From an uncultured Chloroflexia bacterium (GTDB taxonomy: Bacteria; Chloroflexota; Anaerolineae; Anaerolineales; Anaerolineaceae): 32,000 nt of DNA. Where the stretch lies: the NCBI GenBank assembly GCA_963704755.1, contig OY969938.1, positions 3,990,001-4,022,000 on the forward strand, read 5' to 3'. A model generated the notes under the pieces. That model was given only the letters and a program-made list of their open reading frames with translations, did no database searches and was not told the origin of the DNA. Shown here piece by piece: positions 1-29,888 of the stretch. The position numbers and the translations under genes were made by a program. Within the stretch, counting starts at the first letter, position 1. Each line of letters opens with the position of its first letter.

Positions 1-1168
1 GCTCCCAGGTCAGGTCCAGGTCATCGCGGCCGAAGTGGCCGTAATTGCAGACCTTCTGGTAGATCGGTTTGCGCAGGTCCAGGTCGCGGATGATGGCGCC
101 TGGGCGCAGGTCGAAGCAGCGGGTGATTAGATCGGCGATCTCTTCGTCGGGGATGACGCCTGTGCCGAAGGTCTCGACGTTGACGCTCAACGGGTGAGAT
201 ACACCGATAGCGTAGGCCACCTGGATCTCGATCCGTTCTGCCAGGCCGGCAGCCACGATATTCTTGGCCACCCAGCGGGCAGCGTAAGCAGCCGAGCGGT
301 CCACCTTTGTGGGATCTTTGCCGGAGAATGCGCCGCCGCCATGACGACCCATCCCGCCGTAGGTATCCACGATGATCTTGCGCCCGGTTACACCGGAGTC
401 GCCCATTGGGCCACCAATAACAAAGCGGCCGGTCGGGTTGACGAAGATCTTCAGGTTCTCGTCCACCATTTCGGGAGGCAGGACCGGCATGATGACCTGC
501 TCGATGACACCCTTGCGAATGTCTTCCTGAGATACGTCTGGGGAATGCTGGGTGCTGATCAGTACGGTATCGACGCGGTAGGGTTTGCCGTAGCGATATT
601 CGATGGTCACCTGCGATTTGCCATCCGGGCGCAGCCAGGGCAGCGTGCCGGCTTTGCGCACCTCGGCCAGCTTGCGGGTGAGCTTGTGGGCCAGGTAGAT
701 GGGCATAGGCATCAGTGTGGGGGTTTCATTGCAGGCAAAGCCGAACATCATTCCCTGGTCACCGGCGCCGACAGATTCGATCTCTTGCTCGGTCATCTCG
801 CCGAATTTGGCTTCCAGAGCTTTATCGACGCCCATGGCGATATCGCCGGACTGTTTGCAAATGGCCACCTGCACGGCGCAGGTCGTGCCATCGAAACCTT
901 TGTCACTGCTGTCGTAGCCAATCCCATTGACCACCTTGCGCACCAGTTCGTCGAAATTGATCTGGGCACGGGTGGTGATTTCGCCCAATACCATTACAAA
1001 ACCGGTTTTGGTTGCAGTCTCGCAAGCTACCCGCGAATACGGGTCTTGTGCAAGGCAGGCATCCAGTACCGCATCGCTAACCTGATCGCACAACTTGTCG
1101 GGGTGGCCCTCGGTTACCGATTCGGAAGTGAACAGGTAACGGGCCGAGTTCATGAAGGAATTAGTCAT
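1..1168 (-). CDS. metK: S-adenosylmethionine synthetase (start complete; C-terminal end runs off window edge)
   Basis: Reverse-strand ATG at 1168-1166, 11 nt downstream of AGGAGG. Translation begins [38 protein letters not shown] and reads ...[29 protein letters not shown] at the window edge, both hallmark MetK stretches. It is missing from the ORF track because no stop lies in the window. The + ORF 194..1366 is its antisense shadow. Confidence 0.95.
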
Positions 1169-1190
1169 TGTAGTATTGACCTCCTGTGGA

Positions 1191-1372
<182 letters not shown>

Positions 1373-1792: not shown

Positions 1793-1899
1793 AGCGGTAC
1801 GGTTGCCAGGCCGTAATTGATGAACCGAATCACACGCATGATCGGTGCTTTTTATTTAATTTGCGGCCGGCAGTCGAATCTTTTTTTAGGAGGTGCGGC

Positions 1900-2316
1900 G
1901 TGCCAGCGCCACGACTTTCACGCGGAAAGGTCATCAAACTTGATCGTCTATTGAATATGCTTTACAAACCGGGGGAAATCGCGGAAGAATTAGGCGTTTC
2001 CGTGGAAACGGTATACCGGTCATATATTCCGGCCGGGGCGCCTGTGATCCGGGAAGCCGGGATCATCTGGATCAATGGGGAAGCATTTCGCAAGTGGGCT
2101 GCAGACACAATCGCTACAACCCGCAGGGGAAAAATCAAACGGGAAATGACCGCAGGCCAGGGGTACTGTGTGCATTGCAACCAGGTAGTGGACATGATGG
2201 AGATTCGAATCAGGCCGCATTCCAAGAGGACCACGGTGGTCCAGGTTTCCGGCCGGTGCCCGACTTGCGGCGGGAAGGTCAACCGCCTGGCGAGAAAGGC
2301 GGATCTTCAGCAATGA
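1900..2316 (+). CDS. Excisionase-like HTH DNA-binding protein with C-terminal CxxC...CxxC zinc ribbon
   Basis: GTG at 1900, 6 nt after AGGAGG. Contains YKPGEIAEELGVSVETVYRSYIPAG (excisionase/MerR-type HTH) and CVHCNQ...CPTCGG. Its stop overlaps the integrase start (ATGA at 2313-2316). Confidence 0.7.
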   Translation: MPAPRLSRGKVIKLDRLLNMLYKPGEIAEELGVSVETVYRSYIPAGAPVIREAGIIWINGEAFRKWAADTIATTRRGKIKREMTAGQGYCVHCNQVVDMMEIRIRPHSKRTTVVQVSGRCPTCGGKVNRLARKADLQQ

Positions 2317-3296
2317 TCAACCGTCAAAACTGGCTGGACATCAAAGCTTTCTTGAAATTTCAGAAGGAGGTCAAGCAGGTGCATCCGTTGAGCGCTCAGG
2401 CGCAATGGTCGCGGTTACGGCACTTGCTCGAATGGGCGGAGGATAAACCTTTTGGAAAAGTTGCCAAAATTCGCCCTACCTTCCCAGCCTTTGCAGAGGC
2501 TCTGGTCAATGAGCAAGAAAATTTGCTATCAGCTTCGAGCTTGAATGCAATTTTCAAAACCAGCCGGACCTTTTTCAACTGGGCGCAAGAGGAATACCCG
2601 AGCAGATATAAAGCAATCGATCAAAGCTGGGTGCAAAGCCTGAGGCCATCGCGCGGAAGAAGCGAGAACGCAGAATTGCACACCAGAAAGTTGTACACGT
2701 TGAACGATGTACTGAAATTGATCGCCGTACCTGCTGAAACTGTAGCCCAACGCCGGCTCAGGGCGGCAGTGGCCTTCCTTTTCCTTTCAGGCATGAGAAT
2801 CGGTGCATTCGTGACGCTGCCGATCAAATGCGTCGACATCGGCGGCCGCCAGGTGGTCCAGGCTCCGGCCCTGGGCGTGCATACCAAAAATAGCAAAGCT
2901 GCGGTGACCTACTTGCTGAACATTCCACAGCTTTTAGAAGTGGTCAAAGAATGGGACAAAGAAGTTCGAGCTGCGCTTCCGGAGGACGCCTATTGGTACG
3001 CTCACCTGGACCAATTCGGTGAATTGACGGCCGAAAAGCCAAACGGAAACCGGGATAACGTGAGACACGACTTCCGCGACGAGCTGGTAGAAATGTGCCA
3101 GATGGCAGACGTCGAATACCTCTCCCCCCACAAGCTCCGGCATGGGTTTGCCGTGTACGCGCTGAAACGGGCCAAAACGCCGGCACAGATGAAGGCGGTG
3201 AGCCAGAACCTGATGCACTCAAACATTGGGATTACAGACGAGATTTACGCGAAACTGGTCAACGACGACGTGAGGGATTTGATCGGGGGATTGTGA
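2313..3296 (+). CDS. int: Tyrosine recombinase / phage-type integrase (island integrase 1)
   Basis: Begins MINRQNWLDIKAFL. Catalytic signature LSGMRIGAF (R), HKLRHGF (HxxR), LMHSNIGITDEIY (H...Y). The track ORF 2094..3296 is an upstream out-of-context extension. Confidence 0.9.
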   Translation: MINRQNWLDIKAFLKFQKEVKQVHPLSAQAQWSRLRHLLEWAEDKPFGKVAKIRPTFPAFAEALVNEQENLLSASSLNAIFKTSRTFFNWAQEEYPSRYKAIDQSWVQSLRPSRGRSENAELHTRKLYTLNDVLKLIAVPAETVAQRRLRAAVAFLFLSGMRIGAFVTLPIKCVDIGGRQVVQAPALGVHTKNSKAAVTYLLNIPQLLEVVKEWDKEVRAALPEDAYWYAHLDQFGELTAEKPNGNRDNVRHDFRDELVEMCQMADVEYLSPHKLRHGFAVYALKRAKTPAQMKAVSQNLMHSNIGITDEIYAKLVNDDVRDLIGGL

Positions 3297-3297
3297 C

Positions 3298-3339
3298 TAT
3301 AAAAAAGAGCCAATCTAAAACAGATTGGCTCTTTTTTTC
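3298..3339. terminator. Bidirectional intrinsic terminator after int
   Basis: 11-bp stem AGAGCCAATCT / AGATTGGCTCT with a 5-nt loop, flanked by an A-run (3298-3305) and a T-run (3333-3339). Confidence 0.75.
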
Positions 3340-4092: not shown

Positions 4093-4344
4093 ATCATAAA
4101 AAAGAACTTGCGCTTAATTACATAGAAAATTTGATAATCAACCGTTTTAAGATAAACACGAAAAATATTTCACCACAAAAATTACAGCATGGTGATCCTG
4201 TTTGCGCTTTAAGTCAGGCTCTATCTCCAGTAAAAGTAACAATCCTCAGTAAAAAATCTGATGCACTCAACCTTTGACATTATGGACAAGATTCACGCTA
4301 AACTGGTCAACGACGACGTGAGGGATTTGATCGGGGGATTGTGA
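4093..4344 (+). pseudogene. Decayed AT-rich integrase remnant (3' third), frameshifted, catalytic residues lost
   Basis: 4170-4257 translates SPQKLQHGDPVCALSQALSPVKV, versus int1 SPHKLRHGFAVYALKRAKTPAQM. After a +1 frame change, 4258-4344 gives LMHSTFDIMDKIHAKLVNDDVRDLIGGL*, versus int1 LMHSNIGITDEIYAKLVNDDVRDLIGGL*. There are in-frame stops upstream. The last 45 nt are identical to 3252-3296. Confidence 0.7.
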
Positions 4345-4355
4345 ATAATAAACGT

Positions 4356-4724: not shown

Positions 4725-5061
4725 AACCGGTGCAACCAGCTAAACACAACGGTTAGGAGATACTCCGCGCCGTTGGGTAGCCAGTTATCGGACTGGGCTC
4801 GAACGGTCAGCGGTGAGCTGGACAAAACATCATTCACCTGCATTACAAATCATTTAGCTTTTTGCGATATTCCTCCTTCCTTTTTGGTGAGGTAGCCTTA
4901 GCTACTCTCGGTGATTAAAAATATTTCTGCCATAGTGGCTCAAATATATTATTACCACTTTGATCAATTAATTCAATAATACTTAATGATTAATTGGTCG
5001 TAAATATTTTGAATTTTTGGTATACAATAATAGAAATTATGTTCTTGCTGACGAGGTTCTC

Positions 5062-5841
5062 ATGGAAGCTAACAACGACATCCAAATCTGGCAGGGGGAT
5101 TGTTTTGAATTGATGCAGCGGATCCCAGACCACACGGTGGACGCGATTATCACCGACCCGCCCTACGGCACCACCGCCCTGCCCTGGGACAAGAAGCTGG
5201 ACCTGGACGCCTGGTGGACGGAGGCCAAACGGGTAATCAAAATAAACGGGATCATCGCCATGTTTTCGGCCCAGCCGTTTACGACCGACCTGATCAATTC
5301 GAACCGCAAGTGGTTTCGCTACGAGCTGATCTGGAAGAAGTCGATGGCAGCCGGCTTTCTAGACGCCAACCAGCGACCGATGCGCATCCACGAGAACATC
5401 GTGATCTTTTCGCAATACTTCCGGCGCTCGAACGACGGCAAACGGGCTGCTACTACCTACAACCCGCAGTTTACCCTGGGCCGGCCCTACAAGCAGAGCG
5501 GCGGGGCCATGAGATCCAAACATTACAACTGGAAGGGAGAATTACCCGCGAAAGAGAATGATGGGCGGCGTTACCCGGTGGACGTACTGGATTTTCCCAA
5601 CGGGAACCACAATTCGCTGCACCCGACGCAAAAGCCCTTAGAACTGGTGAGCTGGCTGGTGCTGACCTACACCCAGCCGGGTGAGCTGGTGCTGGACCCC
5701 TTCGCCGGCTCCGGAACGACGCTGGCAGCCTGCCGGCAAGCGGGCCGGCGCTGTATAGGCATGGAACGGATGCCCGATTACGTTACAACCATCGAAAGAC
5801 GATTGAGTGAAATCGCTCCTGCACCAACAAAGTCGACATAA
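5062..5841 (+). CDS. Beta-class DNA methyltransferase (DPPY, probably N6-adenine), no cognate nuclease evident
   Basis: ATG at 5062 (MEANNDIQIWQGDCFELM). Motif IV is IITDPPYGT, upstream of motif I LDPFAGSGTTLAACRQAGRRCIGME. The gene is GC-rich and flanked by AT-rich DNA. Confidence 0.9.
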   Translation: MEANNDIQIWQGDCFELMQRIPDHTVDAIITDPPYGTTALPWDKKLDLDAWWTEAKRVIKINGIIAMFSAQPFTTDLINSNRKWFRYELIWKKSMAAGFLDANQRPMRIHENIVIFSQYFRRSNDGKRAATTYNPQFTLGRPYKQSGGAMRSKHYNWKGELPAKENDGRRYPVDVLDFPNGNHNSLHPTQKPLELVSWLVLTYTQPGELVLDPFAGSGTTLAACRQAGRRCIGMERMPDYVTTIERRLSEIAPAPTKST

Positions 5842-5851
5842 GAGCTGCTAA

Positions 5852-6604
5852 TTATTTTTCTTCATCAAGCGAGGCCAAATTACCCCGAACAATTTTTATA
5901 TTGGGGTGGTCAGCAGGCAAGAATTTCACAAGGATCTTCAGCGCCCGCTCGTAGCTGGCTTTGGCGCCGGCCAGATCCCCCAGGGCTTGCAGCACACTCC
6001 CCAGGTTGTTGACATCCCCGGCGACATCCGGATGATCCGGCCCATAGACCGCTTCGTCGATCTTCAGCGCCCGCGCGAAGCTGGCTCTGGCGCCGGCCAG
6101 ATCCCCCAGGGCTCGCAGCACAGCCCCCAGATTGTTGACGCCCCCGGCCACCCGCGGATGATCCGGCCCATAGACCGTTTCGAAGATCTTCAGCGCCCGC
6201 TCGTAGCTAACTCTGGCGCCAGCCAGATCCCCCAGGGCTTGCAGCACACTCCCCAGGTTGTTGACGGTAGTAGCAACTTTCGGATGCTCCGGCCCATAGA
6301 CCGCTTCGACGATCTTCAGCGCCCGCTCATAGCAGGTTCTGGCGCCGGCCAGATCCCCCAGGTCTCGCAGCACACCCCCCAAGTTGTTGACATCTGTAGC
6401 CACCTCCGGATGATCCGGACCATAGACCGCTTCGTCGATCTTCAGCGCCCGCTCGTAGCTGGCCCTGGCGCCGGCCAGATCCCCCAGGGCTCGCAGCACA
6501 CCCCCCAGGTTGTTTACACGAATGGCGACCTGCGGATGATCCGGCCCATAGACCGCTTCGTCGATCTTCAGCGCACGCTCGAAGGCAGATTTGGCTAAAT
6601 CGTA
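5852..6604 (-). repeat. 126-bp tandem coding repeats (about 6 units) encoding the TPR array
   Basis: Near-identical 126-nt units are visible directly, e.g. the recurring GATCTTCAGCGCCCGCTCGTAGCTGG...CCGGCCAGATCCCCCAGGGC. Confidence 0.9.
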
Positions 6605-8245
6605 TCTGGTAATATTTAGGAGGTTCAACCCGAAAATATTTAGAATTCTTGATTGTGATCTTAACTTATCAGTTGAACCCAAAGAGCAAAAATGTTGCAG
6701 GTGGGGATGCAACGGTAAGTAATTGGTCGGCAATCCGGAATCATAGGCTTTTCCAGCCAGGTCTATAAACGCCTCTCCTATTTCGTCGAGAGTTTGGTCT
6801 TGTCCTTCAGCAGAGACAGCACTGGAAAAGGCCGAAAGTAGAGGGTGGATCAAAAAGCCGGATGTAGATCGTTCAAGCACGCCCAAAGAACATACGGTTT
6901 TGATTGCCCGGTCGAAATCGCTTTCCTCTTCAACGCCCGATGCCTTGAGCAACAATTCCCTGGGGATGGGATTGCCAGGCGCACACCAGCCGGCCAATAG
7001 GAAGATTTTGCGGGATAAAACTTTATTCTCGTTATTCCCAGCTAGCCGATCCAAACTCATTTTGAACGTTGCAGCCAGGCTGGTTTCGTGTTGAGTGGGA
7101 CTGCCTTCGACCCAATCCAACAGCGAGCTATGCTGCAATAAATTTTCCTGTTCAGCCACCTCGGCTAAATAGCCGTCGGCCGTGAGTGTTTCACGGTCGT
7201 TCAAGTAGTGGCCGGCCAGGTCGATTGCTAATGCCAGATAGCCCAGTTTCGCCGAAATCTGATCGAGTTGATCGTCGGGAAGATCCTTCAAACGTTCAGC
7301 CAATTTTCGTAGAAGGTCCCGGCATTCTTCGACGCTGAGCAGACCAAGCGGCTGCGATTGCAAGCCCAGGTCGGCTGGCCAGTCGAGCCGGCGGGCGGTG
7401 AGCAACAGACGGGAAGCGCTTAGCCTGGGCATCCAATTTCGCAATATCTCGGGGTCTTCGAGGTTATCCAAAATCACAAGCCGGCGCTTACTTGCCTTCC
7501 AAACGCGGAGGGTGGCGGCGACCTGGTCAGGGACTTGTTCCGGCCAGGGATCGATACCCATTTCACGGCCGCATTCGCTTATTTCGGTATCAATATCGGT
7601 ATCGCGGCAGTTGATCCAATGAACACCTTGGAAATAGCGACCGTAACGATAACAAAACTCGACGGCGAGCTGGGTTTTGCCGATGCCGCCCATGCCGGTG
7701 ACGGCTTCGATTTGGGTCACGGCCACGTTGGTAGGTCGTTCCGCATAGATCAGGTCATCCGCCAGGGTAAGCAGGTCGGTTTCGCGGCCGGTGAAGACAG
7801 CGTTGCGGGTATGGGGCATACGCGAGCCCGGCAAAGGATCGCCAACCTTTGGGAGTTTACCTCGCGGAGGCAACTTTGGTAATTTCTTTTCCAGCTCTTC
7901 CGGAGATGCCTTTTCGTCTTGTGAGGGGCCAATAGTCACGTGATCCGCGTGCTCAATAGTAGTTCGACTACCTCCAATTTGGTCAGCGTCAATTTTCTTA
8001 GCGATTATATTTATCCCATTACCAGTTTGTGTATTTTTATTTTCTGTTGTATTCGATTTTTCGGGTTTTCCGTAGATCTTTATGAGGTTTGCAGCGACTG
8101 ACGTCACTGAAACAATGGCTGCACCGATTATGATAAGTAATGCGTATACACTGCGGTTTGGAGAAATTAAATAACTTACGCCAACCACGAAAAAAATTGC
8201 AAGGAAAAGATAAAGTGTTATGCGTGATCGAAGGATTTTGTCCAT
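5852..8245 (-). CDS. STAND NTPase: N-terminal 2-TM segment, NB-ARC-type ATPase, C-terminal TPR array
   Basis: ATG at 8245 (MDKILRS). Two hydrophobic helices (LYLFLAIFFVVGVSYLI; ALLIIIGAAIVSVTSVAANLI). Walker A GMGGIGKTQLAVEF (7673-7696), Walker B RRLVILDNLED, LLLTARR, then about six 42-aa TPR units YERALKI.EAVYGPDHP.VA..VNNLG.VL.ALGDLAGA. Confidence 0.9.
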   Translation of the reverse strand: MDKILRSRITLYLFLAIFFVVGVSYLISPNRSVYALLIIIGAAIVSVTSVAANLIKIYGKPEKSNTTENKNTQTGNGINIIAKKIDADQIGGSRTTIEHADHVTIGPSQDEKASPEELEKKLPKLPPRGKLPKVGDPLPGSRMPHTRNAVFTGRETDLLTLADDLIYAERPTNVAVTQIEAVTGMGGIGKTQLAVEFCYRYGRYFQGVHWINCRDTDIDTEISECGREMGIDPWPEQVPDQVAATLRVWKASKRRLVILDNLEDPEILRNWMPRLSASRLLLTARRLDWPADLGLQSQPLGLLSVEECRDLLRKLAERLKDLPDDQLDQISAKLGYLALAIDLAGHYLNDRETLTADGYLAEVAEQENLLQHSSLLDWVEGSPTQHETSLAATFKMSLDRLAGNNENKVLSRKIFLLAGWCAPGNPIPRELLLKASGVEEESDFDRAIKTVCSLGVLERSTSGFLIHPLLSAFSSAVSAEGQDQTLDEIGEAFIDLAGKAYDSGLPTNYLPLHPHLQHFCSLGSTDKLRSQSRILNIFGLNLLNITRYDLAKSAFERALKIDEAVYGPDHPQVAIRVNNLGGVLRALGDLAGARASYERALKIDEAVYGPDHPEVATDVNNLGGVLRDLGDLAGARTCYERALKIVEAVYGPEHPKVATTVNNLGSVLQALGDLAGARVSYERALKIFETVYGPDHPRVAGGVNNLGAVLRALGDLAGARASFARALKIDEAVYGPDHPDVAGDVNNLGSVLQALGDLAGAKASYERALKILVKFLPADHPNIKIVRGNLASLDEEK

Positions 8246-8498
8246 ACCAGCCCCCAATTTCGATGTAACTCATTATGACTATTTTTCCTTTGAAATTCAA
8301 CCTGGTGTTCCGAAAGCTGGTACTGACCTCTCCCAATCCCTGCAAGTTGTGATTGGATTTATTTGCCGAATCCGAAAAATAACTACTGGCCTTTAAAATA
8401 AACACTCGTTGGGTATGGGCATCGAGTATTACAAAGAATATTTATATGTTTGCATCACTCGCCTGGAGAAGGCCACATATAACTAGCTGAGAATTTTT

Positions 8499-9779
8499 CT
8501 AATTAGAAGCATTTTCGAGAAGGGTTAGTTTACATATTTTCAAAAACGCCGACATCCCTTCAACCAATTCAATTACACTGGCCATTACATCGATGTTTCG
8601 CTCCCAAAATAATCTGTCCACCAATTCCTCGGAAGTCCTATTAAATTCTAATAAAATATCTACTAATTCCTTGTCACGAAAAGAGAATGAATTTGAATTT
8701 GTCCTTCCTGAATATTCCGAAAAAATTCTTAAGCTAACATCCCGAAGGGAATCATCAGGGACTTCAACTTCATATGATTTATTAATCGGTAGTAATCGGT
8801 GAAATGCTTTATTTCTGGCCTTTGCTATTTGGTCTTTATAGTCGGACAGTTTGGGTTTTGTATTTTGGGTTGCCCAAGGTAAATTCCTCAATGCTGTAGA
8901 AAAACCATATTGATAACGAAAGGTGCCCAATAATACGATGGGCTTTAGATCCCCTACCTGACCTAAAAGCCTTACTATTTTCATTGCGTCGTCAGTGAAA
9001 TTATAGGCTATGCGTAGGATTTCTGTCGAAAGAGGTAGATCTAGATCAGATATATCGAAGTTAACTATTTCTTCTTTATATTTTTTTAATTGGTCTTTCA
9101 AGGGAAGAACTAAACTATCTAAGAAATATACAGTATCTGTTTTAATCGTCTTTGGAATAACCAAACGAGCATAAGATTCTTTTTGTAAAAGATGGAATGC
9201 ATCCATCAATGCCCGCCTAAGTATTGATTTCACATCATCGCCAACATTACCTATATTTTCTTCAACATATTGCCAGATTTGGTAAGTCTCATCAAGATTT
9301 CTAACCTTCAGAATTCCATTATTGAGAATTGCTGGTTGTGGTAAAGAAGAATCCAGAACTACCTTTGAAATTAAGGCATGGTCTACGGGAGATTCAAAAA
9401 TTAAACTGTCATCAATTTCACTAATCAAAATGAAGACTAATTCACCTAGGGAGTTTAATTGTTTCTTTACAAACTCAGCCAAAGGAATTACTTCGGAAAT
9501 TTTTGAATCGTTTTTCGAGACAAACGAATAATCTTTATTAATAGCTAATCCATTTAATACAAAAACATCATTCTCTTGAACTATACTTTTTTCAGCCAAA
9601 ATACCTAGGTAATGATCACTTTTCTTGGTTTTTACTTTCGTGTCACGAAATGGGAAAGAGTTATTAATTAGGAAATATTTATTCTCAAGTCCTGACATCG
9701 AACTCTTAATGCTAGACCAATCGATAATATTTAAGAAACCATTAATTTGATTTAATATTTGGTCGATTATCGTATTCAT
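8499..9779 (-). CDS. Hypothetical 426-aa protein with two HEPN-like R-x4-6-H motifs
   Basis: Long open frame in AT-rich DNA, 51 nt downstream of the MTase-Mrr gene on the same strand. Contains SILRRALMDAFHLL (R189..H196) and IAKARNKAFHRLL (R322..H327, nt 8816-8799). No other motif recognised. Confidence 0.75.
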   Translation of the reverse strand: MNTIIDQILNQINGFLNIIDWSSIKSSMSGLENKYFLINNSFPFRDTKVKTKKSDHYLGILAEKSIVQENDVFVLNGLAINKDYSFVSKNDSKISEVIPLAEFVKKQLNSLGELVFILISEIDDSLIFESPVDHALISKVVLDSSLPQPAILNNGILKVRNLDETYQIWQYVEENIGNVGDDVKSILRRALMDAFHLLQKESYARLVIPKTIKTDTVYFLDSLVLPLKDQLKKYKEEIVNFDISDLDLPLSTEILRIAYNFTDDAMKIVRLLGQVGDLKPIVLLGTFRYQYGFSTALRNLPWATQNTKPKLSDYKDQIAKARNKAFHRLLPINKSYEVEVPDDSLRDVSLRIFSEYSGRTNSNSFSFRDKELVDILLEFNRTSEELVDRLFWERNIDVMASVIELVEGMSAFLKICKLTLLENASN

Positions 9780-9830: not shown

Positions 9831-11489
9831 CTAAAACCCAAACTCTCCTTGAGTTCCTTCCTGTCTCTTGACCCGCTGAGCCTTCTTAAATGCTCCATAA
9901 GCAGGCGGCATTTGGACCTTTTTGCCAGCTAACAATTCCTCTATTGTTAGTATTTGCAGCCGCGGATATTTCTGCTGCCAGAAGTCAGAGGTATAAAATC
10001 CGGCTGAAACCGCCTCTGTGATCATGTCTGAGGAAGGTTTTTCGAGTGTAATCAGAACCCCAATCGTTGAATTATCCCGTTCTATGGTTCCTCGCAAATC
10101 TCTTATCGTAGCAGAATTGACATGGCCGCTTTTCACCTGGATAACCACCTGTTTAGGTTTTCCAGAAGCATCATCCAAGTAAGGAATAAGCCCGTCAACA
10201 CCTTTGTCAGATCCCTTTTTCCCTTTCTTGCTGCCCTTTTCGCCACCTAACGGCCTAGCCTCGATGAGGGACAAGGCCCACCATTGGAATTGATAGCGAT
10301 CTTCCGAAGCAAGCTGGTAGGCCGATTGGATATCTTCCGGTTCACCAACGATCTGATAATCCTTGCCAGGGTCAAGGTTAAACATGTCCTTTAGCCTGGA
10401 TTTGTGCATAGCAATAGCCAGGTGAGTAACATCAATGCCTATCCACTGACGATTTAATTTCTGAGCCGCAGATATTGCTGATCCACACCCACTAAAAGGG
10501 TCTAGCACAATATCGTTTTCTCTGGATGAAGATTGGATTATTCTTTCCAATAAGGTTAATGGTTTTTGAGTTGGATATCCCAACCGTTCGGCCGAGGAAG
10601 CCTGAAGAGGCGGAATATCTATCCAAACATCAGTGATTTTTGGCCCTTCCTGGTCGTTTAGATAAACCTTTCTCCGAATTCTGCCATTTTTAATAGGTGG
10701 AAAAATCAATCTCCCGTCATCATCTAAGGTCGCCATTAATCGTTTATTTACCCGCCATCCTTTAGGAGGGGGAGGATAACCTTTATATTCGAAAGTCAAA
10801 TTTGGACGGGGATTAGGGCTATCAAGGGGAGCACTTTGATAAGGGCCACGGCCATCTCCATCATCGAATTTAAACCTTGATAAATATTCTTCATCTTGGT
10901 TGCCAAAAACCGACAAAAAATAATATTTGCTCGACTTTCCATAAAGCAAAATTACATCATGTACAGAGCCAAATTTTCTTCGAACATCACCTTTTACCGC
11001 AGTTCTTTGCCAAATAATTTCATTGATTACATTATCAGGCCCAAAAATCACATCCATTAGGATTTTTAAATAATGACTAGCCGTTGGATCACAATGCAAA
11101 TAAAGGCTTCCTGTAAGTTTTAACACCCGGTGTAATTCAACTAATCTAGCAGCCATCATGACCAGGTAAGCCATCATTTGGTTTGTGCCAACGAATTGGC
11201 GAAGTGCTGCAATCATTTGACCAACCTGAACGTTTTCTCCGGTCACTAGTTCGTTATAAATTTCTTCAGCCGATGGCCCCCAATGCCAGGTATCATCGAA
11301 AGCGGAAATCTGCGCTTCAGCGGCCTGGCCTGATTCGTCCTTGAAAAGAATGTTGTAAGATCGGTTTGAGTTGAACGGAGGATCCAGGTAGATTAAATCG
11401 ACCGATTCGGTTGGAATATATTCTCGTAGGACTTTTAGATTATCACCATAGTATAACGTGTTCAATGAATTCTCCTCAGCCAACCACAT
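9831..11489 (-). CDS. Beta-class DNA methyltransferase fused to a C-terminal Mrr-like PD-(D/E)xK nuclease domain
   Basis: LIYLDPPFNSNRSYN (motif IV) lies before VLDPFSGCGSAISAAQKLNRQWIGIDV (motif I). The C-terminus has DKGVDGLI...VVIQVKSGHVNSATIRDLRGTIE...IGVLITLEKPS, resembling the Mrr catalytic core (GxDG...QxK). Confidence 0.88.
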   Translation of the reverse strand: MWLAEENSLNTLYYGDNLKVLREYIPTESVDLIYLDPPFNSNRSYNILFKDESGQAAEAQISAFDDTWHWGPSAEEIYNELVTGENVQVGQMIAALRQFVGTNQMMAYLVMMAARLVELHRVLKLTGSLYLHCDPTASHYLKILMDVIFGPDNVINEIIWQRTAVKGDVRRKFGSVHDVILLYGKSSKYYFLSVFGNQDEEYLSRFKFDDGDGRGPYQSAPLDSPNPRPNLTFEYKGYPPPPKGWRVNKRLMATLDDDGRLIFPPIKNGRIRRKVYLNDQEGPKITDVWIDIPPLQASSAERLGYPTQKPLTLLERIIQSSSRENDIVLDPFSGCGSAISAAQKLNRQWIGIDVTHLAIAMHKSRLKDMFNLDPGKDYQIVGEPEDIQSAYQLASEDRYQFQWWALSLIEARPLGGEKGSKKGKKGSDKGVDGLIPYLDDASGKPKQVVIQVKSGHVNSATIRDLRGTIERDNSTIGVLITLEKPSSDMITEAVSAGFYTSDFWQQKYPRLQILTIEELLAGKKVQMPPAYGAFKKAQRVKRQEGTQGEFGF

Positions 11490-11739: not shown

Positions 11740-12036
11740 TGAGGTTTTCCCGGACTCTGGTTTTTGTCCAAGTTTTGGATTGAACGTAATTAAATTACTT
11801 GAAAGCTTAGTTTGGGCGTTTATAAGGTCCTTATTTTAATTTAGCTATCTCCAATTCTTTTTGTTGAATATTCCCAGTTAGGGAATCTGTTTCACTATCA
11901 ATAGCATCAATTTTCGTTTCGGCCAAAGATTTTTTCATTTCAATAATTTTTTCATGTAACTCTATGACCTTTCCCCAAATCAGTAGACACGAATGAAGGG
12001 TGAGAGATGTACAGTAAAAGGGAACGGAGGAAGGTC

Positions 12037-12345
12037 ATGAGTGACAAGAAATATCGAGAATACACCGATGAGTTCAAGCGGGAAGCGTTAGAGCTGCTGA
12101 AAAGCAGCGGGAAGAGTGCAGGACAGCTTGAGCGGGAACTGGGGATAACGCCAGGGATGTTGCTAAAGTGGCGGGATCGATACGAGGTGGTGTTGCCAGA
12201 GAACCAGGAGCCGAAGCTGGTACCGAGTGATTTAGAAGCGGCCAAAAGGGAGATTGTGCGTTTGCAACGGGAGCTGAAGGAGATAGCCGAAGAGCGAGAG
12301 ATCCTAAAAAAAGTAGTCAACATTTTCTCCCGGAAAGGCGGATGA
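12037..12345 (+). CDS. IS3-family transposase OrfA (HTH)
   Basis: MSDKKYREYTDEFKREALELLKSSGKSAGQLERELGITPGMLLKWRDRY, with GGAGGAAGG upstream. A leucine-zipper-like tail precedes the A AAA AAA G frameshift site. Confidence 0.9.
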   Translation: MSDKKYREYTDEFKREALELLKSSGKSAGQLERELGITPGMLLKWRDRYEVVLPENQEPKLVPSDLEAAKREIVRLQRELKEIAEEREILKKVVNIFSRKGG

Positions 12346-13199
12346 AGTACACGTTTATGGCTGCCCACGAAGAGCAATTTCAGATCAAGCGGATGTGCCG
12401 GATGCTGAGTGTGAAGCGCAGTGGGTATTACGCCTGGCGGAAACGAACGCCCAGCACGCGGGAACAAGCCAACCAGGCTCTGCTGGAGCTGATTACAGCA
12501 GAGCATGAGCGCAGCCGGAAAACATATGGCAGCCCGCGTGTGTACGTGGTTCTGCGGCGAAAAGGGGTAGTGTGTGGGCATAATCGGGTGGCACGCCTGA
12601 TGCGTTTGCATGGGATCGCAGCCCTTGCAAGGCGCAAGTACCGTCCAGTGACCACCCACCGCCAGCCAGGGGCGATTCCTGCCCCCAACCGGCTGAACCA
12701 GGACTTCTCCGCCTCTGCCCCCAACCAGAAATGGGTCAGTGATTTTACCTACATCGAGACCGGAGAAGGCTGGTTGTATCTGGCCGTGGTCTTGGACTTG
12801 TTCTCCCGCAAAGTGATTGGGTGGTCGATGAGCCAGAAGATGGACACCGCCTTGGTAGAAACAGCTTTGCGTATGGCCCTCCTGGGACGTCATCCACCGG
12901 CTGGCCTGCTGCACCACTCCGATCAGGGCAGCCAGTACACCAGCGCTGCCTACCGCTCCTGCTTGACCGAAGCTCTGGCCCAACTGAGTATGAGCGGGGC
13001 TGGCAACTGTTACGACAATGCGGTCATGGAGAGTTTCTTTGGCACTCTGAAAACCGAATGCGTTACGGGTCCATTTCTTACCCGTACCTTGGCTCGCACG
13101 ACCATTTTTGAATACCTGGAGGTTTGGTACAATCGCCAACGACTACACTCTACTTTGGGCTACCTCAGCCCCGTTGATTTCGAAAACCTCACCCTTTAA
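12342..13199 (+). CDS. IS3-family transposase OrfB (DDE/rve integrase core), normally expressed as OrfAB by -1 frameshift
   Basis: Contains WVSDFTYIETGEGWLYLAVVLDLFSRKVIGW, HSDQGSQYTS and YDNAVMESFFGTLKTE (D, D, E regions). The -1 frame is open from 12312 into orfB. Confidence 0.9.
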   Translation: MKYTFMAAHEEQFQIKRMCRMLSVKRSGYYAWRKRTPSTREQANQALLELITAEHERSRKTYGSPRVYVVLRRKGVVCGHNRVARLMRLHGIAALARRKYRPVTTHRQPGAIPAPNRLNQDFSASAPNQKWVSDFTYIETGEGWLYLAVVLDLFSRKVIGWSMSQKMDTALVETALRMALLGRHPPAGLLHHSDQGSQYTSAAYRSCLTEALAQLSMSGAGNCYDNAVMESFFGTLKTECVTGPFLTRTLARTTIFEYLEVWYNRQRLHSTLGYLSPVDFENLTL

Positions 13200-13781
13200 C
13201 TATGTCTACTAAACCGGGGAAAGGTCACTATGACCTCAGAATATTGAGAGCTAATATCCGCTTCAGGAACTAAATCTTTCCAGTCTTCTATTGAATTTAT
13301 TATTTCTTCTTGAATTTGAATACTTCGTAAAACCACTTCATCAAAAAACACCTTCTGGATTGGGGTCAATCGATCTTCTTTTGTTTTAGATAGTTGCCCC
13401 ATTGAATCGCCAATTCTTTCTCCCAAATCGACTACCATCCTATTTACCGATTTCAAACCCCTTATCGCCGATTCTCCGCGTATTTTTAACCTTTCATTTC
13501 GGCTTTTTTCATCCCACAAATTTGCAATTAATCCACCTAATAGACCTGTCATTAATGTTAATAGAATATTCACAAACGCAGAAAGAACGACGTTCTTGGG
13601 TAAAAATATTGAAAAACACAGAAATAATAATGATAAAATAATTACGATAAATACCGGGGGAAAAAATAAAATTTTTACAAGTTTTTCCCATTCCTCGCGG
13701 ATTGTAGCCTTTTTTATCATTTGTAGGAATTCCTTTTTGCACAATTATCAATACACAAAAAAAGGATTAAATAAAACACCG

Positions 13782-14711
13782 TTACCTTAGCGCCCTTCTC
13801 CATCCATTGGTCTGGGCTTCTTCTTCGGTGCAGAACCACTTCTCCCCTTTTTCCGGGGAGATCTTCGTTTTATCATAGTCACGTTGCCCCGGCATGTGAT
13901 AAATTTTCTCACCGCTAGAGGAGATGTTGCCCTTGATATCGCACCTGGGCAGCTCCGTGGTGCAGCCGGTCGGACATTGGCCGACGGATTGGGTAGTCAA
14001 AACAATTTGGGTATCTGTGGGCTTTATTGCCCAGACGCCCATAACTTCGGCTTTCGCCTGATCCTGGGCCTGATGGAAGAATTCATGGCAGATAGTATCT
14101 GGAGGGTATTCTTTGGCGACGGCCATGCCGTCCCTCACCAGCTCATAATTGACAAAAACGTTATCAACCAAGACATATCGGAGTAAACGGTCGTACGGAT
14201 CCGTTTCCGACACATCCTTTATGAGGACGACCGTCTTTCCTTCTACCATCCCTGAGTTCTCTTTTGTGGCCAGGTCAGCGACCGGGTTTCCGCTGTTCAG
14301 TTCGGGAGTGTCGACCCCAATGTAACGGACTGGGTAGTCAACTCCATCGATCTCGACGTGGATCGTATCACCGTCCACTATACGGGTCACCTCTCCCACC
14401 TGCATTGCATCCTTCCCGGCTAAGCATCGATACAAATCACCATATCCCAGCGCCGATGGTTCGGCGCTTTCAACTTTTTCCTGTTCTGTTGGCGTCGAAA
14501 TCGCGATCACTGTATTTGTCGATACAAGTTGAACGGATTCAGTGAATGTTATGGTTGTTTGTATTGTTGCGCTTTCAGCCGTATCTTTCTCGGGGTTTCC
14601 AGGGATTAAAGCAACACCCACACAACACAAAATCACCAGGCCTAATATTCCTAGTGCAATATTCCTCATTTGTTTTTCTCTTAAATAGGTTTTTTTCTTC
14701 CCATCCCCCAT
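13782..14711 (-). CDS. Membrane-anchored/secreted thermonuclease (SNase-like) with Cys-rich C-terminal domain
   Basis: N-terminal hydrophobic anchor NIALGILGLVILCCVGVAL. SNase core VTRIVDGDTIHVEIDGVDYPVRYIGVDTPE...DRLLRYV...NYELVRDGMA. C-terminal CDIKGNISSSGEKIYHMPGQRDYDKT...WFCTEEEAQTNGWRRA. Confidence 0.85.
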   Translation of the reverse strand: MGDGKKKTYLREKQMRNIALGILGLVILCCVGVALIPGNPEKDTAESATIQTTITFTESVQLVSTNTVIAISTPTEQEKVESAEPSALGYGDLYRCLAGKDAMQVGEVTRIVDGDTIHVEIDGVDYPVRYIGVDTPELNSGNPVADLATKENSGMVEGKTVVLIKDVSETDPYDRLLRYVLVDNVFVNYELVRDGMAVAKEYPPDTICHEFFHQAQDQAKAEVMGVWAIKPTDTQIVLTTQSVGQCPTGCTTELPRCDIKGNISSSGEKIYHMPGQRDYDKTKISPEKGEKWFCTEEEAQTNGWRRALR

Positions 14712-14738
14712 AGGGTTCCCCTTTTTATCCGATACAAA

Positions 14739-15470
14739 TCAATCTTTTGCATTACCTTCCCCAGGCACCCTCAAGATGCCGGCAACAAACGTAAGGACTG
14801 CCCCGAGGAAAACGACGTACGGACCGGGGCCGACCAGAACGGTTACGTACTCGGTCGTTTGCGCGCTGACGTCCATTAGCGAGCCATAGTCGACCGCCAT
14901 TATCACGAATAGCAGTAAGCCCAGGGGGATCAGAGGCCAGGAATAAATGCGGCGCTGTTTTCCCAGGTGAAATATAGCGACGAAGCCAATCCCGACGCCG
15001 GCCGCGAAGAAGAAAGGCCCGTCCCCGGACATGCCGCTTTTCGAGGCCGAACCAAAGATGGAGAGCAGGCTGCCCCAAGGGAGAATGGCTCCAACGATCA
15101 AGAAGACGGCTGCTAAACCGGCCAATAGGTTGCCTGTATGCCGGCGGGTGGCTTTGAGCGCCTGGGAAGTCGGGTCCAGATCAGGATCGTAAGCCCGAAG
15201 CTCGACTTCCTTTTCGACTGCAAATTTTTCGAGCCTGGTCATCTTTTTTTGGATGTCGTTCAGATCGCGCGTCCCGATGAGGAGCCAGAAAAAGGCAACG
15301 CCGATGAGGACCAGGCCGATAATGAGAATAGGGCCGCCGACAATACAGGAAGCGATGCCGGCAAGTAAAATGCCCAAAGCTATCTTGAGCGAGTTTTTCT
15401 GCCCGAAAAACTTTCTGGAGGTGTCAAAATATTCTGATTGAAGATCGATGCTGTGTTCCACTTTGCCCAC
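14739..15470 (-). CDS. Polytopic membrane protein, function unknown
   Basis: GTG start. Several long hydrophobic segments (ALGILLAGIASCIVGGPILIIGLVLIGVAFFWLLI; LLAGLAAVFLIVGAILPW; FFFAAGVGIGFVAIF; LIPLGLLLFVIMAV; VVFLGAVLTFVAGIL). Confidence 0.7.
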   Translation of the reverse strand: MGKVEHSIDLQSEYFDTSRKFFGQKNSLKIALGILLAGIASCIVGGPILIIGLVLIGVAFFWLLIGTRDLNDIQKKMTRLEKFAVEKEVELRAYDPDLDPTSQALKATRRHTGNLLAGLAAVFLIVGAILPWGSLLSIFGSASKSGMSGDGPFFFAAGVGIGFVAIFHLGKQRRIYSWPLIPLGLLLFVIMAVDYGSLMDVSAQTTEYVTVLVGPGPYVVFLGAVLTFVAGILRVPGEGNAKD

Positions 15471-18456: not shown

Positions 18457-18529
18457 TGCCCCTGCCCAGATTCGAACTGGGATTTTCCACTTCGCTAAAG
18501 TGAGGTCTTATCCATTAGATGACAGAGGC
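18457..18529 (-). tRNA. 73-nt tRNA, apparent anticodon AGC (A34, G37), no encoded CCA; identity uncertain
   Basis: The reverse strand folds as GCCTCTG-TC-ATCT-AATGGATA-AGAC-C-TCACT-TTAGCGA-AGTGG-AAAAT-CCCAG-TTCGAAT-CTGGG-CAGGGGC-A. It has a 7-bp acceptor, U8, A14, GG in the D loop, T54-T55-C56 and A58. A TTGAAA -35 box (18566-18561) and an A/T-rich -10 lie just upstream of the 5' end. Confidence 0.75.
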
Positions 18530-28174: not shown

Positions 28175-29888
28175 GTGACACACCCTTGCACCCAATACGC
28201 GCTGGACGTCGTCGAGGGACGGCGGGTGGTCGGGCAGTCCGAACGGCTGGCCTGCCAACGCCATCTCGACGATCTCGCGCGCCAGGGCAGCGAGAGCTTC
28301 CCGTGGATCTTCGACGAGGCCAAAGCCGACAAGATCTACGACTGGTTCCACTACTGCCACCACGTAAAGGGGCCGCTGGCCGGCCAGCCCATCGATCTGC
28401 TGCCCTTCCAGAAATTCGACCTGGGCTGCGTTTTCGGGTGGGTGCACAAAGACACCGGCTTTCGCCGTTTCGAGAAGTCCTACAACCAGCGGGCACGGAA
28501 GAACGCCAAATCGACCGAAATGAGCGGGATCGCGCTATACCTGATGGCCGGGGACAAGGAAGAGAGTCCGGAAGTGTACTGCGCGGCGGTGGACCGCGAG
28601 CAAGCGCGCATCGTGTGGAAAGACGCCCGGATCATGGGCCAGAAATCGCCGGACATCCGTAAGCGGTTGAAGATCCTCAACTACTCGATCACCCACATCA
28701 CCCGTGGCGGCGAGCTGAAGGCGCTCAGCAAGGAAACCAAGAACAAGGACGGGCTGAACCCCAGCGGGGTGATCATCGACGAATACCACGCCCACCCCAC
28801 CTCGGAGATCTACGACCTGCTCTGGTCGGCCTGGGGGCAGCGCAGCCAGGCGCTGATGGCCATCATCACCACCGCCGGGTTCGAGACGGTCGAGAACCCG
28901 TGCCACGACGAATATGAGTACTGCAAGAAAATCCTGGCCAAGATCGTCAATAACGAGCGCTATTTCGTGATGATCCGTGAGCTGGACCCGAAAGACAACG
29001 AACACGACCCGGCCAACTGGATCAAAGCCAACCCGCTGCGGGCAGCCACCCCGGAAGGGCTGGCGAAGCTCAAGGAGCAGCACGACGAAGCGTTCGGCTC
29101 GGGGATCCCTGAAAAGATCCGAAATTTCCGGGTCAAGAACCTGGACATTTGGGTCAACGAAACCGAGAACAGCTACATCGGCGAATACATCACCAGGTGG
29201 GACGGCCTGGCGGTCAGCCGGGAGAAATTCATAGAGCTAGACTCGCGGGCTGTTCTGCATCGTCGGAGGAGACCTCTCCAAGAAGATCGACCTGACCGCA
29301 GTAGCGTTCTTGTTCTCTCTTCCGGATGGGCGCATTGCGATTTCCGCCCAGGGCTTCATACCCGATGCCGGCATGGCCAAACACGAGAAGAGCGACGACG
29401 TCCCCTATCGGGAGTGGGCGCGGGATGGGTGGATCACGGTTACACCGGGGGACGTGACCGATTACCGCGAAGTGCAGACGTTCATCCAGGACCGCGAGCT
29501 GGATTGCGGATGGAAGGTGCACGAATTCACCTTCGATCCCTACAACGCCACCCAGTTCGCCAACGAACTCCAAGACGAGGGCTACACCTGCGTGGAAGTA
29601 CGGCAGGGGGTACAGACCCTGAGCGAACCCACCAAGTCGTTTCGGGAGCTGGTGGCCAACGGAACGCTGGTGCACGACGGGTCGCCGGTATTGAAATGGT
29701 GCCTGGCCAACGCGGTGGTGGTGCAGGACAACAACGAAAACATCAAGCTGAGCAAGAAGAATGCCTCCGACAAGAAGCGCATCGACCTGCTGGCGGCAGC
29801 GATCAACGCAATGGTACGCGTCCAGGCCCTGAAAGACACCAGCCAGGACATCAGCGACGACATCAAGGATGAAGGATGGGGCATGTGA
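28175..29888 (+). pseudogene. terL: Terminase large subunit split by a 1-nt frame disruption near 29241-29252
   Basis: The ATPase half (GTG 28175) is convincing up to ...WDGLAVSREKFIEL. The nuclease half continues in the +1 frame from 29241: (T)RGLFCIVGGDLSKKIDLTAVAFLFSLPDGRIAI...FDPYNATQFANELQDEGY...KKRIDLLAAAINAM. The remainder of track ORF 28175..29872 is Arg-rich nonsense. Confidence 0.8.

Follow-up and report, generated by a model that had tools for sequence, protein, structure and literature searches.

A two-helix membrane hairpin fused to an NB-ARC/tetratricopeptide repeat NLR-like protein on an integrative element of an uncultured Chloroflexia bacterium, and its possible role in cell death

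The stretch analysed here, called the window throughout, comprises 32,000 nucleotides of the genome of an uncultured Chloroflexia bacterium (NCBI GenBank assembly GCA_963704755.1, contig OY969938.1, positions 3,990,001 to 4,022,000). On its minus strand, at 5852..8245, we have identified a complete coding sequence for a protein of 797 amino acids (aa), in which a hairpin of two predicted transmembrane (2TM) helices, a short motif rich in Q, N, G and I, an NB-ARC NTPase and an array of tetratricopeptide repeats (TPRs) follow one another in a single polypeptide. The protein is a NOD-like receptor (NLR)-like member of the AP-ATPase/NB-ARC class of signal transduction ATPases with numerous domains (STAND), with all motifs of its nucleotide-binding oligomerisation domain (NOD) intact, and its gene occupies a variable cargo slot by the integrase-methyltransferase end of an integrative element. 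For this all-in-one NLR carried by a mobile element, a membrane-disrupting role in abortive infection or cell death would be the best reading, to which we give a probability of about 0.6 on the grounds of sequence, profiles and models.

Bacterial NLRs are established antiphage sensors and evolutionary kin of the plant, animal and fungal NLRs, yet few of their effector modules have been characterised, above all beyond the Proteobacteria. The locus described here offers an entry point to a compact hairpin module that is found in all three known wirings of an effector to an NLR.

The NLR-like protein

A feature at 5852-8245 had been proposed by a first-pass annotation of the window, and the gene is real at those coordinates: an uninterrupted open reading frame (ORF) runs on the minus strand from an ATG at 8245 to a stop codon at 5852-5854, and the identical 797-aa protein (P0001) is held in public collections, on a 4.87-Mb contig. 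The AlphaFold2 model of the whole chain, calculated from an alignment of 83 sequences, reached a mean predicted local distance difference test score (pLDDT) of 88.5. All parts of the protein given below are encoded on the minus strand.

The NTPase core (aa 178-356; 7178..7714) was delimited by PF00931, by its motifs and by Foldseek matches; it scores 33.4 bits with Pfam NB-ARC (PF00931) against a cut-off of 23.5, and its NACHT score of 17.9 bits stays under the cut-off of 26.7. The P-loop GMGGIGKT (aa 184-191; 7673-7696), the Walker B motif LVILDNLED (aa 256-264; 7454-7480) and LLLTARR (aa 280-286; 7388-7408), which the first-pass annotation had named along with the TPR array, are all present. 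They are followed by a GLPL-like motif, LGYLALAIDLAG (aa 334-345; 7211-7246), and, within an ARC/winged-helix and helical-linker region (aa 357-524; 6674..7177), by the MHD-like motif IHPLL (aa 466-470; 6836-6850). This last region was assigned from its confident AlphaFold2 model and from the conserved MHD-like residues, with H467, L469 and L470 nearly invariant among 83 homologues; the window protein retains its Walker A, Walker B, sensor and MHD-like residues, which are conserved in the same 83 homologues. The best Foldseek match was the archaeal STAND-TPR protein 6mfv, with further matches to Apaf-1 and CED-4 (including 5juy, 1z6t and 8jo0), and the CED-4 fold (8jo0) gave a target-normalised template-modelling score of 0.68 over 387 columns. 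It is because of these fold matches that the protein is placed among the AP-ATPase-type NLR-like proteins. The tripartite NLR/STAND architecture that had been suggested is thus borne out by the NB-ARC score, by the fold matches to STAND-TPR, Apaf-1 and CED-4 proteins and by the TPR array.

The putative sensor is a TPR array of six 42-aa units and a cap (aa 525-797; 5855..6673), recognised by TPR_12 (214.6 bits) and TPR_10 (185 bits) of Pfam and by its direct repeats. An initial degenerate unit is followed by five 42-aa units sharing 69-86% identity at the protein level and 80-90% at the DNA level, and then by the C-terminal cap. In the DNA the units are 126-nt direct repeats; an antisense ORF of 230 aa at 5906-6598 was rejected as a by-product of these TPR repeats and is not a gene. 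A fold search likened the array to TPRs of the kinesin-light-chain type, and the only PDB sequences matched in a search were TPR proteins, kinesin light chain and OGT among them. Differences between units cluster at unit positions 6, 9, 10, 16, 38 and 40, and the pooled pN/pS between units is 0.66, a value that is no formal test of positive selection; diversification at the variable positions would be compatible with this pattern, which does not prove it. High internal repeat identity is a described hallmark of such bacterial NLRs (bioRxiv 10.1101/2020.01.06.895854).

In front of the NTPase lies a proline-rich conserved pre-NOD segment, LPKLPPRGKLPKVGDPLPGSRMPHTRNAVFTGRE (aa 122-155; 7781..7882; pLDDT 75-94), defined by its conserved columns, among which P126, G140, S141, N148, F151, G153 and R154 are invariant or nearly so. 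It forms part of a pattern, LPxxGxLPxxGxPLPGSRxPxxRNAxFTGRE, that spans aa ~107-175, is confidently modelled and is common to the whole family. The linker of about 120 aa that had been described between the membrane helices and the P-loop consequently stands as a region and falls into two parts, a low-confidence stretch with the short motif (aa 59-106) and this conserved pre-NOD segment (aa ~107-175).

Two N-terminal hydrophobic helices, noticed already at the first pass, were confirmed by hydropathy and by AlphaFold2. The hairpin module (aa 1-60; 8066..8245), delimited by hydropathy, modelled helices and profile scores, holds TM1 (aa 9-27; 8165-8221) and TM2 (aa 33-55; 8081-8149), whose Kyte-Doolittle 19-residue maxima are 2.47 and 2.40, and outside these two no stretch of the protein rises above about 1.1. 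The modelled helices extend over aa 8-27 and 33-58. Because the flanks are rich in K and R (MDKILRSR; YGKPEK) and the connecting loop has 5 residues, an N-in/C-in hairpin with the remainder of the protein in the cytoplasm is expected from the positive-inside rule.

Directly after the hairpin module comes the region that carries the Q/N/G/I-rich short motif QTGNGINIIAKKIDADQIGGSRTTIEHADHVTIG (aa 73-106; 7928..8029), detected by local alignment. It aligns with the C-terminal tail of a stand-alone hairpin protein, P0125 (GGVNIVADHIKADQIGGTRT), with a score of 69, and with the N-terminus of another NLR, P0011, with a score of 97, and neither score was reached by any of 2000 shuffles (27±5). Equivalent segments occur in P0186 and P0199, where the hairpin is fused to other NOD types. 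Since aa 73-106 match the P0125 tail, the P0011 N-terminus and the segments of P0186 and P0199, the window protein has the appearance of an effector-motif gene product joined to that of a motif-NLR gene. The motif is rich in Q, N, G, I and V, and its composition and length fit the description of BASS motifs (bioRxiv 10.1101/2020.01.06.895854).

The G+C content at third codon positions (GC3) breaks within the gene, from 0.30-0.37 in codons 1-110 (7916-8245) to 0.58-0.65 in the remainder (5852-7915); the low value matches that of the upstream gene (0.29), and the drop at the N-terminus is weaker in the homologues than in the window gene. This would be consistent with an N-terminal hairpin and motif module brought in by recombination. 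Moreover, because the low side of the break matches the low-GC genes upstream, it suggests that the hairpin and motif module and the upstream genes had a different donor than the NOD-TPR chassis.

The hairpin as a module family

The window hairpin is shared with 12 homologues of the protein (P0002-P0006, P0008, P0009, P0013, P0068, P0077, P0081 and P0095). A word-indexed search with the hairpin profile yielded only 2 matches, and a scan of metagenome contigs with the hairpin alignment only 4 short loci. An exhaustive search of 1.84 billion (1.84e9) cluster representatives with a profile of the N-terminal ~115 residues returned 167 clusters at E<=1e-3, with 53 at E<=1e-10. The module is ~70 aa long with the consensus ISWFAFPxW(R/H)xxPGGFWxLLGxAAVGVxxxxKDVVxIxKDxKE, that is, two helices with an aromatic/Pro/Gly turn between them, the second helix being rich in small residues. 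Family profiles from which the query had been excluded matched the window hairpin with 40.7 bits (built without the window protein and P0002) and 36.7 bits (built from 144 independent representatives). Its turn reads VSYLISPNRSVY (VSYLISPN): the tryptophans and the PGG of the family are gone, while S and P remain, as do the helices.

Lengths below 250 aa are found in 92 of the 144 new representatives, a number that is an upper bound for stand-alone proteins, and 34 have at least 500 aa. The long members carry NB-ARC (19), NACHT (8), nSTAND3 (6), AAA_16 (17) and TPRs (24), and a few members are hairpin-TIR fusions (P0130 and P0149). The window holds no second copy of the hairpin, the 182-aa 2TM protein at 13196-13744 being unrelated, and no stand-alone hairpin was met on viral contigs in the scan.

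No model in Pfam, PADLOC, NCBIfam or PHROGs covers the module, either at the N-terminus of the window protein or in the stand-alone proteins. Known families tried for aa 1-175 were set aside: from Pfam there was only a sub-threshold Wzy_C match, and no SLATT model of Pfam appeared even at E<=10. A two-TM module occupies the effector position in SLATT and other pore-forming effectors (Burroughs et al. 2015, as cited in PMC7159879), as is the case here, whereas the turn SWFxFPxW(R/H)xxPGG is specific to the hairpin family and no SLATT profile matches it. In the open-access papers and preprints that we searched, no description of the hairpin family was found and TM segments on bacterial NLRs were mentioned just in passing; the module family and its three modes of coupling thus appear to be new.

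Coupling of the hairpin to NLR/STAND genes

Three arrangements of the hairpin were found. It may be fused to an NTPase of the NB-ARC, NACHT or nSTAND3 type, as in the window protein; it may form a stand-alone protein of ~110-125 aa adjoining an NLR/STAND gene, a short Q/N/G-rich motif being present in both; or it may be fused to an EAD7 adaptor (EAD, effector-associated domain) beside an EAD7-NB-ARC NLR. The first-pass proposal of a 2TM N-terminus in the effector position gains support from the last two, where the hairpin stands as a small protein of its own beside NLR/STAND genes and is coupled to them by motifs or by EAD7.

In locus L006, a 124-aa protein composed of the hairpin and a tail, ...GSGVNIVGDVNTKGGDIIGSQTSHYG, ends 28 bp before the NLR P0011, whose N-terminus reads ...QTGDGVNITAGKVEAEQIIGTQNVYH, and the pair aligns with a local score of 39 against 23±4 in shuffles, a score reached by 11 of 2000. 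In L019, the gene of a hairpin protein (154-516) whose tail is a doubled SEDVxQxM...QKQT...VxQxM is followed after 3 bp by that of a P-loop protein (520-2079; GFSGHGKST), in which GSEDVHQTM occurs (score 48 against 21±4; 0 of 2000 shuffles). L018 has the same arrangement and the same SEDVxQxM motif, and in both loci the P-loop protein has one copy of the motif ~100 residues past the P-loop, internal rather than N-terminal. The gene order of L018 and L019 recurs in L020, where the downstream gene is read only at the start of its P-loop, and in L014 a hairpin protein is succeeded by a P-loop ATPase and this in turn by a TPR protein. A classical pair of the same NOD family was found in L008: the tail of a helical protein of 144 aa reads TASDHSIAIGGSIGGGVTNIHG, and the NLR beside it starts with ISARDHSLSVGGNVYGNVGIYHG (score 62; 0 of 2000 shuffles). 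The entry HetE-N (PF20701), given for this upstream protein in a precomputed table, was not reproduced by hmmscan and was discarded.

EAD7 coupling is illustrated by L035, in which P0243, a hairpin-EAD7 protein (EAD7 at 40.4 bits), is encoded by a gene that overlaps that of an NB-ARC/WD40 NLR by 4 bp; residues 10-55 of the latter are 50% identical to the EAD7 of P0243. Proteins of the EAD7-NB-ARC-TPR type are also found among the homologues of the window protein. The small proteins of the motif and EAD7 pairs contain nothing beyond the hairpin and the coupling element, and in published systems the same position is held by Bell, TIR, CHAT or hydrolase effectors (bioRxiv 10.1101/2020.01.06.895854; PMC7159879).

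Relation to known NLR-like systems

A word-indexed search for homologues gave 442 relatives, the named ones coming from Anaerolineae/Chloroflexota metagenome-assembled genomes (MAGs) and from Methanothrix, and a scan of species-representative genomes added relatives in MAGs of Chloroflexota, Anaerolineales and Capsulimonadaceae. The NOD-TPR chassis is 40-55% identical among relatives whose N-termini differ: these may be TIR (PF13676), a trypsin-like peptidase (PF13365), Mrr (PF04471), HNH (PF01844), EAD1/EAD7 (PF19955/PF19960), zinc ribbons, an XRE helix-turn-helix, or just a short Gly/Asn/Val-rich peptide. Such effector swapping is a signature of the NTPase-centred conflict systems of multicellular prokaryotes (PMC7159879) and was also described for bacterial NLRs (bioRxiv 10.1101/2020.01.06.895854). 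Relatives of the NOD-TPR part lie on 10 IMG/VR viral contigs as well, and some relatives are split or truncated, P0005 (482 aa) being followed by a 470-aa ORF and P0011 by TPR fragments.

The window protein belongs to a known kind of bacterial NB-ARC/TPR NLR that is frequent among Chloroflexota and Methanothrix. NLR-like proteins of this kind in multicellular prokaryotes were reportedly recognised by Koonin and Aravind in 2002. With those treated in later surveys (Dyrka et al. 2020, bioRxiv 10.1101/2020.01.06.895854; Kaur et al. 2020, PMC7159879) it shares the AP-ATPase NOD, the 42-aa TPR_10/TPR_12 array of very high internal identity, the variable N-terminal effector position and the distribution in Chloroflexota and Methanothrix; it differs from them in its N-terminus, a constitutive two-helix membrane hairpin for which Pfam and PADLOC have no model.

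The small membrane-directed proteins that are paired with motif-sharing NLR/STAND proteins in the relatives L006, L018 and L019 recall the Bell/BASS-NLR and Bab/Agp pairs (bioRxiv 10.1101/2020.01.06.895854; 10.1101/2024.11.07.622273), and a motif of ~25 aa shared by adjacent genes in the Bell/BASS manner is present in L006 and L008. However, a 2TM hairpin here takes the place of the Bell/HeLo-like helical bundle as the putative effector, the motif of the L018/L019-type NTPase is internal and not N-terminal, and in the window protein effector, motif and NLR form one polypeptide. A two-gene motif pair is absent from the window locus, the motif being in cis and the 426-aa protein encoded upstream having no such tail, and the N-terminus of the window protein is the 2TM hairpin without a Pfam match and not a Bell domain; an identity as a Bell/BASS pair was therefore rejected. 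In the same way, the EAD-coupled effector/NTPase systems (Kaur et al. 2020, PMC7159879) are like the hairpin-EAD7 proteins beside EAD7-NB-ARC NLRs (L035), whereas the window protein is a direct fusion without an EAD.

The comparison with Avs drawn at the first pass holds as an analogy rather than as a membership, since no Avs/NLR model of PADLOC matches. Avs and bNACHT antiphage proteins (PMC13581612; bioRxiv 10.1101/2022.07.19.500537) likewise unite effector, NTPase and repeat sensor in a single gene and occur in a mobile or defence-island context, and TM-containing variants of both have been noted (bioRxiv 10.1101/2022.07.19.500537; PMC13581612). The window NOD, in contrast, is of the NB-ARC type, and the sensor is a regular 42-aa TPR array where Avs sensors are irregular and TPR-like.

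A cargo gene of an integrative element

The accessory and mobile location that had been inferred for the gene was borne out. After metK and its S-adenosylmethionine (SAM) riboswitch, which mark the core-genome edge, the window enters an integrase-bearing element in the order small protein, integrase, orphan DNA methyltransferase (MTase), NLR, 426-aa protein, MTase-Mrr fusion, IS3 transposase, SNase and membrane proteins; past the SNase and membrane genes come a second integrase, a tRNA-like gene and a phage-like region. Related elements were found in two metagenomic loci, L022 and L001. In L022, the integrase is 63%, the small protein 61%, the MTase 70% and the 426-aa protein 74% identical to the window counterparts, and the 426-aa gene directly adjoins that of the MTase, the NLR being absent from between the two. 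In L001, the closest NLR homologue, P0002, is convergent with an MTase 73% identical to that of the window and has other genes on its far side. It is the lack of the NLR in L022 and its presence with different flanking genes in L001 that define the site of the NLR gene as a variable cargo slot. The locus thereby illustrates how NLR genes can be swappable cargo beside the integrase-methyltransferase end of an integrative element. As for the possibility of a housekeeping gene, the closest homologues do not sit in conserved syntenic core positions.

The gaps of 253 bp to the upstream gene (8246-8498) and of 10 bp to the convergent MTase (5842-5851) had been measured correctly. However, the functional link that had been drawn to an upstream cassette of MTase-Mrr and HEPN-like genes is unsupported: the neighbours of homologues differ, and L022 has the 426-aa gene without the NLR. 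There is no conserved partner gene, because other hairpin-NLR homologues sit in unrelated contexts. A sigma-70-like -35/-10 match (8272..8300, minus strand; consensus match only) lies in the 253-bp gap 5′ of the ATG, and because of this promoter-like match an own promoter and independent transcription of the NLR gene are plausible.

Proposed mechanism and alternative explanations

At rest, the protein would be held in the membrane by the N-in/C-in hairpin, with NOD and TPRs in the cytoplasm, autoinhibited and ADP-bound. By precedent of NLR and Avs proteins, the near-identical TPR units with their few variable positions may bind a non-self protein, most likely one of a phage or of another mobile element. 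Binding of the ligand would free the NOD for nucleotide exchange and for assembly of a ring or filament, which, as the comparative architecture suggests, would gather several hairpins together with the adjoining Q/N/G-rich motifs. Perhaps the motifs beside the clustered hairpins zip together, and the second helices, rich in small residues, could then pack into a lesion of the cytoplasmic membrane, leaving the cell depolarised or permeabilised and leading to abortive infection or growth arrest. The plant ZAR1 resistosome and HET-S/NWD2 are precedents. In bacteria, the Bell/BASS-NLR gene pairs (bioRxiv 10.1101/2020.01.06.895854) and the Bab/Agp pair of E. coli, where an amyloid motif activates a membrane-targeting domain in T5 infection (bioRxiv 10.1101/2024.11.07.622273), may serve as precedents.

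A wider proposal, which we put forward tentatively and hold clearly less probable than the role of the protein itself in membrane disruption, is that the hairpin, found in fusions, in prion-like motif pairs and in EAD7 pairs, represents an unrecognised family of prokaryotic cell-death effectors. On this view, effector, motif and NLR would be fused in the window protein, its retained motif zipping the hairpins of one oligomer together and perhaps recruiting free hairpin-motif proteins of the P0125 type in trans, which would amplify the lesion.

Several observations weigh against a membrane-disrupting role. The window hairpin lacks the family turn SWFxFPxW(R/H)xxPGG, and a profile of the stand-alone core group alone fails to detect it; for these two reasons it is, judged by its profile scores, a divergent member of a distinct module family. 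Some of the short hairpin members are contig-end fragments of NLRs, and in the hairpin-TIR fusions TIR is the obvious effector, so that the hairpin could there be an anchor or a co-effector. As to the motif, AlphaFold2 leaves aa 59-106 unstructured (pLDDT <50), P0125, which has the closest tail to it, is without an NLR within 5 kb, and the L006 pair aligns with a score just modestly above that of shuffles. Finally, PADLOC-DB v2.0.0 gave only generic TPR (22.6 bits) and PDC-M64B (14.7 bits) matches and no defence model.

The chief alternative has the hairpin serving solely as an anchor that tethers the sensor to the inner membrane, for example at the site of phage entry, with the output passing through recruitment of a partner or signalling by the oligomer. 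It would agree with the presence of the hairpin before TIR domains (P0130, P0149) and before diverse NTPases, and with its constitutive hydrophobicity, given that Bell/HeLo domains hide their helix until activation (bioRxiv 10.1101/2024.11.07.622273). Yet the ~110-125-aa proteins of hairpin plus motif or EAD7 hold, beside NLR/STAND genes, the position of the effector in Bell/BASS and EAD systems, the fused forms have no conserved partner gene, and the same NOD family fills the N-terminal position otherwise with enzymes (TIR, protease, nucleases). On balance, we consider a pure anchor unlikely.

The same death machinery might instead answer to another trigger, in allorecognition or developmental cell death of a filamentous multicellular bacterium, in the manner of fungal HET NLRs. 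We judge this improbable too, in view of the mobile setting of the gene: the window copy and its closest homologue lie on integrase-bearing elements beside MTases, relatives are found on viral contigs, and those bacterial NACHT and Avs relatives that were put to the test act against phages (bioRxiv 10.1101/2022.07.19.500537; PMC13581612). What speaks for it is the concentration of the family in Chloroflexota/Anaerolineae and Methanothrix, which are filamentous or form aggregates, the location of some homologues among ordinary metabolic genes, and the highly similar repeats with few variable positions, which recall fungal incompatibility NLRs (bioRxiv 10.1101/2020.01.06.895854).

That the gene is decaying or inactive cargo is very unlikely: several relatives are indeed split or truncated (P0005, P0011) and GC3 breaks within the gene, but the 2.4-kb ORF is intact, the NTPase motifs are all kept and the whole-chain model is confident. 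Least probable of all, and largely refuted, is a component of FxSxx-COOH peptide processing or of a vWA-MoxR system, or a SARP/AfsR-like regulator, for although NF040586 (FxSxx_TPR) is the best NCBIfam match with 275.2 bits and AfsR gives 66.6 bits, both stay under their curated cut-offs (300 and 1430), the matches are confined to the generic NB-ARC/TPR part, and no Fxs precursor peptide, radical-SAM, vWA, MoxR or DNA-binding domain was found in the gene or its neighbours.

Appearing in all three wirings, the hairpin could serve as a simple experimental system for asking how induced proximity or amyloid-like templating turns a hairpin into a lethal lesion, and also whether fused and split NLRs are mechanistically equivalent.

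Other features of the window

At the left, metK (1-1248, minus strand) is preceded by the SAM riboswitch (1249-1369, minus strand; Rfam RF00162, 86.7 bits). The left end of the element itself consists of a small DNA-binding-like protein and a tyrosine integrase (1861..3296, plus strand; Phage_integrase 51.2 bits). A 98-nt direct repeat, 87% identical, at 3207-3304 and 4255-4352 duplicates the 3′ end of the integrase gene and probably represents the remains of another, related integrase or element. The orphan N6/N4 DNA MTase, a backbone gene of the element convergent with the NLR gene, follows at 5017..5841 (plus strand; N6_N4_Mtase 115 bits).

Upstream of the NLR gene, the 426-aa protein (8499..9779, minus strand) has no family match in any library scanned and no PDB fold match at E<0.001, with an AlphaFold2 pLDDT of 89.4. 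Its 91 homologues, of ~420 aa, have R322, N323 and H327 invariant (ARNKAFHR, with the Rx4H spacing of HEPN type) along with other invariant residues. For the HEPN-like label it had been given, this invariant R-N-x3-H motif is the sole basis, and no counterpart was found among PDB folds. The gene 52 bp further upstream (9831..11489, minus strand) encodes an MTase fused to a C-terminal Mrr_cat/NA-iREase1-like domain (N6_N4_Mtase 140.5, NA-iREase1 32 and Mrr_cat 27 bits), and the restriction-endonuclease-like domain of this fusion is possibly inactive.

Past the MTase-Mrr gene and ahead of the 2TM/SNase genes, the element is interrupted by an IS3-family insertion sequence (12007-13199, plus strand) of orfA/orfB arrangement, with a DDE-type core in its transposase of 285 aa. 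The 2TM/SNase genes form a run of three (13196-15470, minus strand), which encode the 182-aa 2TM protein; a protein with an SNase domain and a TM segment at its N-terminus, matched by PADLOC C3a212 'SNc+LTD' with 73.7 bits; and a 243-aa multi-TM protein that is 43% identical to a protein of L001.

Between the second integrase and the phage-like region, ARAGORN predicted a tRNA-Ala with the unusual anticodon AGC (18457-18529, minus strand), for which Rfam gave no tRNA at the gathering score; it may be an aberrant tRNA, one borne by a mobile genetic element, or a remnant of an att site. Further on, at 28175-29888 (plus strand), the frame of a terminase large subunit seems broken: a 565-aa ORF turns into Arg/Gly-rich low-complexity sequence after about residue 370, and a second ORF (29310-29888) carries on the terminase-like sequence in another frame. 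A frameshift, a pseudogene or an error of sequencing could explain this break in the prophage-like region.

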